A stretch of 35,013 bases of DNA from the IMG/VR virus record IMGVR_UViG_2579778606_000008. One strand, 5' to 3'. This document shows positions 21,490 through 23,084 of the stretch, one piece after another (the first letter of the stretch is position 1; each line of letters opens with the position of its first letter). Position numbers and translations under genes: made by a program. Source of the DNA: a virus. Taxonomy: Duplodnaviria; Heunggongvirae; Uroviricota; Caudoviricetes. The notes below the pieces were generated by a model. It had not been told where the DNA came from and did no database searches. It worked only from the letters and a program-made list of their open reading frames with translations.

Positions 21490-21799
21490 GTTTTGTTGAT
21501 GCGCCGTATCGTCGCTATATTCCCTCATTAACAGAGACCGCAGCCCGACAGGGAGACTCCTCTGCGCGAGTGTGCGGGGATAATTAAAAACGATGCACAC
21601 CGGGTTTTTACCGCGTTAATGATTCGCGGGTTTATCCCGGTGCGATGGTGGAAGAAACAGGAAGCTGTATTACAGAAAGTGCTACTACTGTATCCCGATG
21701 CGATGTATGTAATGTGAGTCAGATAATGGCACAGGATGTGGTGATGTGGCAGTCTGGAACACAGGATATATTGTCAGAATAAGACCCGTAGGAATAAAA

Positions 21800-22126
21800 A
21801 TGAAAAGACGCCTTTTACTACTTTTTCTGTTATCTGTCCTGGCAGTGGGATGCTCGCAGCAAAAAGCTGATGAGCCCCGGCAATTAGTGACGGTGTATCC
21901 ACGATATCCGGAATATGCTGCAGCAAATTATATCAAGGGGCTGGTTGAGGTTAAGTTCGATATTGGTGCTGATGGGACTGTGACACGGATCGTTTTTCTC
22001 CGCTCAGAGCCTCATAATTTGTTTCGTGATGAAGTGGTGAAGGCCATGGCGAAATGGCGATTTGAAAAGAATCGCCCCTGTCAGGGAGTGAAGAGACAAT
22101 TTATCTTTACGCCGTCACGTCCTTGA
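21800..22126 (+). CDS. Lipoprotein with TonB C-terminal-like domain (cargo gene)
   Basis: ATG at 21800; signal peptide with LAVGC lipobox; YPRYPEYAAANYIKGLVEVKFDIGADGTV...W.F resembles TonB_C. Confidence 0.55.
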   Translation: MKRRLLLLFLLSVLAVGCSQQKADEPRQLVTVYPRYPEYAAANYIKGLVEVKFDIGADGTVTRIVFLRSEPHNLFRDEVVKAMAKWRFEKNRPCQGVKRQFIFTPSRP

Positions 22127-22248
22127 TGCTTCCAGGTAGAGAGGGGCTGGACGCAGGAGAAAAATGAAAGAGCCAGCGGTTATATTTTTGTCATGGCTGA
22201 CGAGGAATGATGGAAGAAGGCGTTGTATGCCACACAACGCCTCACTGT

Positions 22249-22428
22249 TCATTTCTTCTTTTTCTCTGGTGGAACCCGATGAATAAGAGTTGCACTGGTT
22301 TCCGATGAGATGGCGATATACTCGGGCAAAGTATGCTGGCAGTTTTCCAACTGGTCAAAAATACCTGCTCTCGTCTGTTGCAATGCCTGCAGCATGCGGC
22401 GGCAATGCGCCTTGCTTTTACTAACCAT
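22249..22428 (-). CDS. Small hypothetical protein (59 aa)
   Basis: Internal ATG at 22428 with strong AGGAAGGA RBS; the longer track ORF (to 22602) overlaps the neighbouring gene. Confidence 0.35.
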   Translation of the reverse strand: MVSKSKAHCRRMLQALQQTRAGIFDQLENCQHTLPEYIAISSETSATLIHRVPPEKKKK

Positions 22429-22489
22429 CTTTCCTTCCTCTATCAGTCGCTGCGTGAACTCATCATGTAATACCAGGTAAATGCGGATG

Positions 22490-22741
22490 TTATCGGTTTT
22501 GGCTACGCAGCATAGTACAAAACGGACAGGTGCATCCCGGGACGGGGGAGGCGTCACATGTCCCTGTGATGGTTGTTCCGGGTAATGCACTGTGTGGGGC
22601 ATAAAAATGTCCGATAATTTTACTTTCTACCGCAGTTAGTTGATTCGTTGGTCCTGGTAGCACATTGGGCGAGGATTTAAATGCCAGGCAACTGAAGGAT
22701 GATGTTGCAAGGGAGATAGCGAGAATATTTCTGATTTTCAT
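22490..22741 (-). CDS. Small secreted Cys-rich protein (83 aa)
   Basis: ATG at 22741; N-terminal signal-peptide-like MKIRNILAISLATSSFSCLA; C-terminal GTCDASPVPGCTCPFC. Confidence 0.4.
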   Translation of the reverse strand: MKIRNILAISLATSSFSCLAFKSSPNVLPGPTNQLTAVESKIIGHFYAPHSALPGTTITGTCDASPVPGCTCPFCTMLRSQNR

Positions 22742-22889
22742 TTGATGATGCCTCTGTGTGAAATGACGGTAAACGACGCACTTGTGCCGGCACATAATAG
22801 CAAGCACCATAATAGATCAGATTCGATTCTTGCTGTAAGTGATAATTATTCTCGTTTTCGGGTCCTTTCCGTCGATCCAACAGGTTACG

Positions 22890-23084
22890 GGGCGGCGACC
22901 TCGCGGGTTTTCGCTATTTATGAAAATTTTCCGGGAACCATGTCCGGTTTCTCTTCAAGTTAACTATATGAAAAATAAAAAAAGAGGTCTTCTGTGAACC
23001 GGACATGCACAAAAAATAGACATGTAAGCCGGACATGACCGGTTTTGTTGTGATTGTGAAGTGAGAGTTTTTGCGAGGTGAGGA
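22890..23084. promoter_or_regulatory. cos site: cosN 12-nt cohesive end GGGCGGCGACCT (22890..22901) plus a cosB-like region with three CCGGACATG elements
   Basis: CAGGTTACG-GGGCGGCGACCT-CGCGGGTTTTCGCTATTTATGAAAATTTTCCGG is essentially the lambda cos sequence as I recall it; CCGGACATG at 22999 and 23029 and inverted at 22939. Confidence 0.75.

Follow-up and report, generated by a model that had tools for sequence, protein, structure and literature searches.

The interval between the spanin gene Rz and the packaging site cos of a phage-21-like lambdoid prophage of Escherichia coli (strain 7/2) carries two genes under purifying selection, one for a small lipoprotein with a TonB C-terminal domain and the other for a protein of 83 amino acids (aa) with an export signal and four invariant cysteines, whose relatives in other enterobacteria lie in zinc-related contexts. 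The prophage makes up the window, by which we mean the whole stretch of DNA analysed (35,013 nucleotides (nt); IMG/VR record IMGVR_UViG_2579778606_000008). The best explanation overall, to which we give about half of our confidence, is that both are functional cargo genes, the first encoding a decoy for the TonB boxes of outer membrane transporters and the second a periplasmic accessory of zinc handling. An earlier note on this DNA had read three open reading frames (ORFs) in the interval, and all three were recovered where it had placed them (plus strand, 21746/21800..22126; minus strand, 22490..22810 and 22249..22602), although the third turned out to be of doubtful coding status.

A TonB_C lipoprotein gene downstream of the lysis cassette

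The first gene (21800..22126, plus strand) encodes 108 aa, arranged as a lipoprotein signal with the lipobox LAVG|C18, a Ser at position +2, a linker of about 8 residues and a TonB C-terminal domain. That this is a lipoprotein with a TonB C-terminal-like domain had been suspected from the letters alone, and profile, alignment and structure searches all agree with it. The protein matches the Pfam family TonB_C (PF03544; E=7e-13, 49 bits against a gathering cut-off of 24.6), the NCBIfam TonB models (reaching E=5e-19, with TIGR01352 at 47 bits against a cut-off of 27) and the TonB C-terminal-domain chains 1U07, 2GSK and 2GRX of the PDB (E of about 1e-14), and BLASTP aligned it without gaps to residues 150-230 of E. 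coli TonB at 41% identity. The NCBIfam equivalog models for full-length TonB, on the other hand, all scored it far under their own cut-offs. At the N-terminus, MKRRLLLLFLLSVLAVG|CS fits a PROSITE-type lipobox pattern with cleavage before Cys18, a cysteine shared by every full-length allele and by a homologue from a Klebsiella phage that is 41% identical (LLGC|S), and by this pattern the product is predicted to be a lipoprotein. Under the Lol rule a Ser at +2 of a lipoprotein leads to outer-membrane sorting, and the Ser found here suggests that the protein is sorted to that membrane.

Two features that define TonB are absent. Between Cys18 and the aligned TonB domain there are only about 8 residues (SQQKADEP), which do not make up a proline-rich spacer, and the N-terminal anchor through which TonB couples to ExbB/ExbD is not present, residues 1-18 being a cleavable lipoprotein signal. 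With neither membrane anchor nor proline-rich rod, we class the product as a TonB_C-only lipoprotein. When compared with a 70%-identical allele, the ratio of nonsynonymous to synonymous substitution rates (dN/dS) is 0.13 in frame and 1.4-1.5 out of frame, which, together with the retained lipobox cysteine, argues that the gene is not a decaying fragment. This allele lies in a different backbone (HNH/Terminase_2, then DUF3950), and in three unrelated backbones, the third being that of the Klebsiella phage homologue, the gene stands directly 3' of the lysis cassette and on the same strand, followed by genes that vary from one backbone to another. It is already annotated as a 'TonB family protein' in RefSeq (WP_000830178.1) and, in phage 21, as CPT_21_73 (TonB family/C-terminal domain); the annotation is long known, and a specific and testable mechanism can be proposed.

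About 20 nt 5' of the gene we read from the sequence a candidate extended -10 promoter element, TGTCAGAAT (21772..21780, plus strand), which is followed by an AGGA ribosome-binding site at 21790-21793. The block upstream of the 70%-identical allele, in its other phage backbone, is TGTTAGAAT, and the two alleles have TGnCAGAAT / TGnTAGAAT in common. We treat this block as a lead, and no more, to a promoter of the TonB_C gene.

We hypothesise that the lipoprotein acts as a TonB-box decoy, consisting as it does of the TonB-box-binding domain of TonB on a short tether and being probably sorted to the outer membrane. Lacking the anchor in the membrane and the proline-rich rod, it cannot couple to ExbBD or transduce energy. 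It would sit under the outer membrane and occupy the TonB boxes of TonB-dependent transporters in competition with the TonB of the host, and this occupation would damp the TonB-dependent entry of rival phages and of group B colicins, and perhaps siderophore and B12 uptake too. The phage protein has the same YP motif as E. coli TonB (P02929) and the same beta3 region that pairs with TonB boxes, and it keeps the aromatic residues equivalent to what we take to be F180, F202, W213 and F230 in TonB numbering, with Y215 replaced by F. It differs from TonB in being phage-borne, in having a lipoprotein signal in place of the transmembrane anchor and proline-rich spacer, and in stopping 9 residues short of the C-terminus of TonB.

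Several published observations bear on this analogy. The TonB box of FhuA pairs with beta3 of TonB (PMC11658791). When the periplasmic domain of TonB is overproduced, TonB-dependent (iron) import is inhibited, and a TonB-box peptide lowers both colicin killing and phi80 infection (Howard et al. 2001 and Tuckman & Osburne 1992, both as cited in PMC9841981). Since the overproduced periplasmic domain inhibits import, a lipid-tethered copy under the outer membrane would be expected to compete with host TonB. The artificial periplasmic fragments in that work consist of a free TonB C-terminal domain, as the phage product is predicted to do; they were laboratory constructs made in excess, whereas the phage protein is natural and predicted to be lipid-anchored.

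Small phage envelope lipoproteins that act on a TonB-dependent transporter are already represented by Cor (phi80, N15) and Llp (T5), which inactivate FhuA for superinfection exclusion. A comparable outcome is predicted for the TonB_C protein, except that Cor and Llp hit one receptor, whereas a decoy for TonB boxes would reach every TonB-dependent transporter, and from the periplasmic side. A 2024 review of superinfection exclusion includes Cor acting on FhuA and contains nothing resembling the TonB_C lipoprotein (PMC11436027), and a relationship to Cor or Llp was not indicated by PHROG, in which the three cargo-region proteins gave no match in the superinfection-exclusion category. Bor/Iss, the product of the lambda moron in the same slot between Rz and cos, is another small lipoprotein of the outer membrane, with no homology to the TonB_C protein.

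A different account, which we consider improbable without dismissing it, is that the lipoprotein is no lysogenic-conversion factor, being instead a late envelope or lysis accessory made from the S/R/Rz/Rz1 transcript. In such a late role it might bind peptidoglycan or outer-membrane proteins and so aid the spanins, or it might shut TonB-dependent receptors and spare the progeny from being lost on debris. The lysis cassette, which lies on the same strand and immediately 5' of the gene in the three unrelated backbones, fits this account, as do the label of its PHROG family (1267, 'Rz-like spanin') and the fact that the promoter scan detected no independent promoter. However, the prophage already has a complete Rz (21016-21489) and Rz1 (21242-21427), and the protein has no C-terminal transmembrane segment such as a u-spanin would have, nor is its gene nested as that of an o-spanin would be; given the separate Rz and Rz1 genes, we regard the spanin label as positional and probably as a mislabelling. 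Also against a late role are the roughly 310 nt of non-coding DNA, with the conserved extended -10-like block, that precede the gene, and the presence of bor, a moron expressed in the lysogen, in the same slot of lambda and phage 21.

A small exported protein with four invariant cysteines

The second gene (22490..22741, minus strand) starts with the ATG at 22741, inside a maximal ORF of 106 aa (22490..22810). Its 83-aa product has a Sec signal at residues 1-20 (C/A-x-A|F), a predicted helix at about residues 33-46 and a C-terminus with the four-cysteine motif C62-x7-C70-x-C72-x2-C75 (nt 22517-22558, minus strand) followed by LRS. The earlier note had seen a signal peptide and the motif GTCDASPVPGCTCPFC here, and this was upheld: the protein is real, conserved and Cys-rich, it carries the signature of an exported protein, and its four cysteines are invariant in an alignment of 24 family sequences. 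Escherichia, Salmonella, Citrobacter and Klebsiella yielded 22 homologues that are about 83 aa long and 55-99% identical to it, and a profile search of 1.8 billion representatives added some 25 clusters of 79-86 aa, all named 'hypothetical protein', from Serratia, Klebsiella, Enterobacter, Pantoea, Buttiauxella and Salmonella, so that the whole family spans 8 genera. Pairwise dN/dS values are 0.10-0.20 in the 83-aa frame. Of the five alternative frames, four give values of about 1 or above, and the fifth, an antisense frame that has its wobble positions in common with the 83-aa frame, is not open.

Across the 24 diverse members, C62, G69, C70, C72 and C75 are invariant (C-x7-C-x-C-x2-C), and P66, L78-R79 and the A20|F21 junction of an A-x-A type signal site are also conserved. 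The signal has a K/R-rich N-terminus, a hydrophobic core, the invariant A20-F21 and either A or C at -3, from which the protein is predicted to be exported by Sec. We considered whether this, too, might be a lipoprotein, since a permissive lipobox pattern accommodates Cys18 of the E. coli/Salmonella clade; the idea is disfavoured because the wider family has Ala there with an A-x-A|F site, lipidation being possible within that clade. We favour cleavage by signal peptidase I, which would yield a mature protein of 63 residues with four cysteines. Neither the single sequence nor the 24-member alignment gave a match in Pfam, NCBIfam, PHROG, PADLOC or the PDB. The ORF is uncalled in the four annotations inspected (RefSeq/PGAP for strain 7/2, phage 21, ev017 and PhiR47_2), in which other frames or strands were chosen. 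We conclude that the 83-aa gene is genuine, that it belongs to an unnamed, zinc-associated Enterobacterales family of small exported proteins, and that it is the more novel of the two genes.

As a side observation, two Asn-rich, eukaryote-like proteins with a ubiquitin-like N-terminus (P0080, 627 aa; P0082, 611 aa) contain 4-5 repeats of P[IL]PGCNCPKCT[NE]LRN. This repeat resembles the PGCxCPFCTMLR core of the 83-aa family, and may reflect a common mini-motif or chance.

Zinc-related context of the 83-aa family

The 83-aa gene travels alone. Other E. coli prophages have it between Nu1/cos and DUF3950, and Klebsiella plasmids have it beside a cos remnant (72 plasmid records in all, 65 of them from Klebsiella). 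Only seven phage records carry it, all phage-21-like, and chromosomal sites were found in Serratia, Klebsiella, Enterobacter and Pantoea, as well as in a Salmonella islet. For each family copy we scanned the 300 nt upstream with the Zur consensus GAAATGTTATAATATAACATTTC, reportedly the gamma-proteobacterial consensus of Panina et al. 2003, and took p values against shuffles. Zur-box-like sites with 15-17 of 23 positions matching lie between -40 and -111 in Serratia, Klebsiella and the two Buttiauxella species (p<=0.02), with a weaker one in Pantoea (15/23, p about 0.055), the p values over these genera running from 0.000 to 0.057; a 17/23 Zur-type site in the azt operon promoter served as an internal positive control. 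In Salmonella, the 83-aa homologue comes after a PPC-domain gene, and a perfect TGTTATAGTATAACA lies 32 nt ahead of the latter.

The neighbouring genes, named with NCBIfam, point in the same direction. On the Klebsiella chromosome they include AztD and AztC (zinc chaperone and zinc ABC binding protein) and paralogues of dihydroorotase (pyrC) and porphobilinogen synthase (hemB). In Pantoea, dksA2-folE2 lie on one side and a ZigA-like GTPase with a Zur-like regulator on the other; a ZigA-like GTPase also accompanies the gene on Klebsiella plasmids, there with a Fur-family regulator, and in Enterobacter a Zn/Cd-type P1B ATPase lies 60 nt upstream. By these sequence signs the family in other genera has a Zur-box-like site, a place among zinc genes, or both, and the combination of zinc-gene neighbours and Zur-box-like sites indicates that it has repeatedly been tied to the zinc-starvation response.

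We hypothesise that the gene gives rise to a Sec-exported protein of about 63 residues, with the invariant four-Cys motif at its C-terminus, which would function as a periplasmic zinc-handling or zinc-scavenging accessory and would be carried by the phage as a fitness factor of the lysogen. A zinc-handling role in the periplasm, for the family as for the prophage copy, is suggested by the context of the relatives. The known proteins ZinT, AztD and PA4063 are likewise exported, and their genes either neighbour those of zinc ABC importers or share with them the control by Zur; one member of the 83-aa family adjoins aztD-aztC. They have no sequence similarity to the 83-aa protein, which is much smaller and has four conserved cysteines, whereas His/Asp/Glu are the conserved ligands typical of ZinT, AztD and PA4063. 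AztD is a periplasmic zinc chaperone (PMC6689063).

It is also conceivable, though in our judgement unlikely, that the 83-aa protein has nothing to do with metals in the phage and is either a disulfide-knotted secreted effector (a pre-pro-peptide resembling a toxin, a bacteriocin or a signal) or a factor of superinfection exclusion in the periplasm. Its layout, with a signal, a variable middle and a conserved Cys-rich C-terminus that has a basic tail, resembles the pre-pro organisation of heat-stable enterotoxins, the Salmonella copy shares its islet with bor, an omptin, a NEL effector and a SPATE, and no Zur box precedes the copy in the prophage. Against this, no toxin, bacteriocin or defence family was matched in Pfam, NCBIfam, PHROG or PADLOC, and the defence-system libraries gave none; no immunity or export partner co-travels with the gene; and its relatives are chromosomal genes in zinc-starvation clusters with Zur-box-like sites upstream. 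The zinc accessory is the reading that we prefer.

Three further observations concern the surroundings of family members. In the islet of Salmonella enterica subsp. salamae (record L003, 3450-4739) the order is a perfect Zur-type palindrome, the PPC-domain gene, the 83-aa homologue, a Fur-like palindrome TGATAAAAATTATCA, a bor homologue and the omptin, the whole being flanked by the NEL effector and the SPATE autotransporter. In other E. coli prophages (L009, 4345-4479) an unannotated 44-aa ORF with a textbook lipobox (MKYFALISALLLSAC...) follows the 83-aa gene and precedes the DUF3950 gene. Both Buttiauxella species (L014, 1645-1860; L015, 6379-6633) have, 3' of the family gene, a gene for a small conserved membrane protein with two helices (about 71-84 aa), which may be a partner in Buttiauxella alone.

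The 59-aa ORF and the frameshift question

The third ORF (59 aa; 22249..22428, minus strand; WP_000253883.1 of the Prokaryotic Genome Annotation Pipeline (PGAP)) begins with the ATG at 22428, inside a maximal ORF of 117 aa (22249..22602). Its case as a gene is made by a strong Shine-Dalgarno sequence (GAGGAAGGAAAG-ATG), the PGAP call, membership in PHROG 4843 and a hairpin that lies 8 nt after its stop. Against it, only 4 near-identical matches were found, all in E. coli, with no diverged homologues and no selection signal, and no counterpart was found beside the 83-aa genes at the other loci examined as DNA. A 1-nt insertion breaks the ORF in one strain (L016), a 48-aa form occurs on 486 contigs, and the substitutions within it fall at codon positions 1, 1 and 3. 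We consider it doubtful that this ORF is a gene; the stretch may be the 3' untranslated part of the 83-aa transcript.

The hairpin, GGCGTTGT-7 nt-ACAACGCC (22219..22241), has an 8-bp GC-rich stem and lies between the convergent genes. Its fold is stronger on the minus strand (-19.6 kcal/mol, z=-2.8) than on the plus strand (z=-1.8), and it is likely the terminator of the leftward unit of the 83-aa gene and the 59-aa ORF, possibly terminating the TonB_C transcript as well, although a strict terminator scan did not report 22219-22241.

The two minus-strand ORFs had been described as overlapping in different frames at 22490..22602, and this is correct for the maximal ORFs of 106 and 117 aa; with the start codons that are supported by homologues and by PGAP, the overlap is replaced by a gap of 61 nt (22429-22489). 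The accompanying suggestion of one frameshifted gene fails against the intact homologues of the 83-aa protein, which are about 79-86 aa long and all stop at the same aligned position. That the two ORFs are one frameshift-broken gene, or decaying junk, is very improbable and for the 83-aa gene already refuted: the overlapping maximal frames, two rare variants of the 83-aa protein (P0003 and P0006) in which about 12 residues are read in the frame of the 117-aa ORF before the original frame resumes, and the disagreement of annotations over strand and frame would fit it, but the homologues end alike down to about 30% identity (Escherichia, Salmonella, a Klebsiella plasmid and other genera), purifying selection acts in the 83-aa frame only, nothing like the 59-aa sequence lies 3' of the 83-aa gene at the other loci examined as DNA, and the block is at least 99% identical, with its frames intact, in 1197 genomes. 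The frame switch in P0003 and P0006 implies paired insertions or deletions within 22540-22590, which are either sequencing errors or real variants.

The cos flank

To the right of the cargo genes, alignment to the right ends of phage 21 and lambda defines the cos region (22860..22901, plus strand), from cosQ (22860-22866) through the 12-nt cosN cohesive end GGGCGGCGACCT. In the alignment the linear phage 21 genome ends on its right side at window position 22889, which places cosN at 22890-22901, and the cosQ annotated in the phage 21 record coincides with that of the window. A palindrome that resembles a Fur box, TGATAATTATTCTCG (22840..22859), abuts cosQ. It matches GATAATGATAATCATTATC at 15 of 19 positions and is the sole site with at least 15/19 Fur matches in the 35-kb window, where 0.03 would be expected. 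For this reason we initially favoured regulation of the 83-aa gene by Fur. The idea was dropped because lambda, which is without the 83-aa gene, has the same element, GATGATAATCATTATCAC, at the same place next to cosQ (L041, about 2150-2170; about 16/19 to the Fur consensus). The palindrome is thus a conserved element of the cos flank and not evidence of regulation. We know of no described packaging or regulatory role for such a Fur-like palindrome in lambda-type cos flanks.

Prophage setting and prevalence of the cargo block

Window positions 21500-23100 are 98.7% identical to Escherichia phage 21 (OL657228), ev017, Perceval and PhiR47_2, and many E. coli chromosomes match them at 100% identity. 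Upstream of the cargo block lie the genes for lysozyme (20001-20534), Rz and Rz1, and downstream of it Nu1 (from 23085) and then terminase A. The sub-block 22127-22880 was found in 1232 of 5426 complete E. coli genomes (about 23%), in 1197 of them at 99% identity or above. The interval had been equated with the place where lambda carries bor, and this was right for the slot; bor itself is absent from the prophage of the window, whereas phage 21 has both bor, between Rz and the cargo block, and the TonB_C gene. We read the slot as a moron (cargo) slot holding two independent functional passenger genes and one doubtful ORF, an interpretation in which our confidence is middling. The suggestion that these genes are host-interaction or lysogenic-conversion factors is plausible in general terms, with the evidence favouring metal biology and envelope transport (zinc starvation and TonB boxes) over a serum resistance like that of Bor.

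Other ORFs that have been annotated in the region were not retained. Plus-strand ORFs of 40, 45 and 61 aa in phage 21 and ev017 are unsupported, their frames having dN/dS of at least 1 where testable, and one of them is truncated in the window by a substitution at 22468. A block CCGGTGCGATGGTGGAAGAAAC at 21637-21658, 3' of Rz, is preserved in otherwise different lambdoid backbones (L037, L009). The 45-aa ORF annotated there in phage 21 (21645-21782) cannot be the reason, since L037 does not maintain it as a reading frame. An Rfam scan of the region gave no non-coding RNA, with only a miRNA match at chance level; elsewhere in the prophage, matches at gathering level were to C4 antisense RNA, isrK, DicF, sok antitoxin RNA and STnc100 (jointly at 4967-5054, 5079-5155, 5390-5441, 13734-13905 and 17547-17730). 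The b region of phage 21 (record L019, 8968-12417) has sitABCD, a TonB-independent Fe/Mn importer, which is intriguing beside a putative TonB decoy; a linkage of sitABCD to the cargo block was rejected, the prophage of strain 7/2 being without it.

Weighing the proposed functions

A number of points weigh against a decoy lipoprotein and a zinc accessory as the products of these two genes. In the case of the lipoprotein, no promoter of the TonB_C gene passed the consensus promoter scan, and the gene is on the strand of the late operon, so that it may perhaps be made only in lytic growth, when the exclusion of other phages matters less. Q160 and R166 of TonB are replaced in the phage protein, and the lysogen would pay for a decoy in lost uptake of iron and B12. 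In the case of the 83-aa protein, the 300 nt upstream of the prophage copy contain no Zur box (best site 13/23, p=0.69), and the sole metal-regulator-like site near that copy belongs to the cos flank. Some family members lie in contexts without metal genes, and the Zur consensus used in the scan was checked only by the azt control. Two AlphaFold models of the protein are poor (predicted local distance difference test scores of 49 and 59). Periplasmic cysteines mostly form disulfides rather than bind zinc, and the four cysteines may form two disulfides instead of a zinc site. A literature search found no study of, and no experimental data for, either the TonB_C lipoprotein or the 83-aa protein.

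A bolder proposal joins the two genes, and we offer it tentatively, as one that is probably too strong. Phage-21-like prophages and many Klebsiella plasmids would mobilise a periplasmic Cys4 zinc chaperone or scavenger that belongs to the Zur regulon of Enterobacterales, while in the prophages an adjacent, natural dominant-negative TonB domain would shut all TonB-dependent gates to rival phages and colicins, the two forming a joint metal and envelope conversion module in about a quarter of E. coli.

The block occurs in roughly a quarter of complete E. coli genomes, clinical lineages included, and one of its two real genes is missing from every annotation inspected, that of RefSeq among them. 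The decoy, if real, would add a new kind of superinfection exclusion and colicin tolerance that does not depend on the receptor, with consequences for iron uptake, for siderophore-antibiotic conjugates and for how therapeutic phages are chosen. A Zur-controlled periplasmic zinc protein, if confirmed, would be an unrecognised component of enterobacterial zinc acquisition, one that phages and conjugative plasmids would spread, with a bearing on nutritional immunity.

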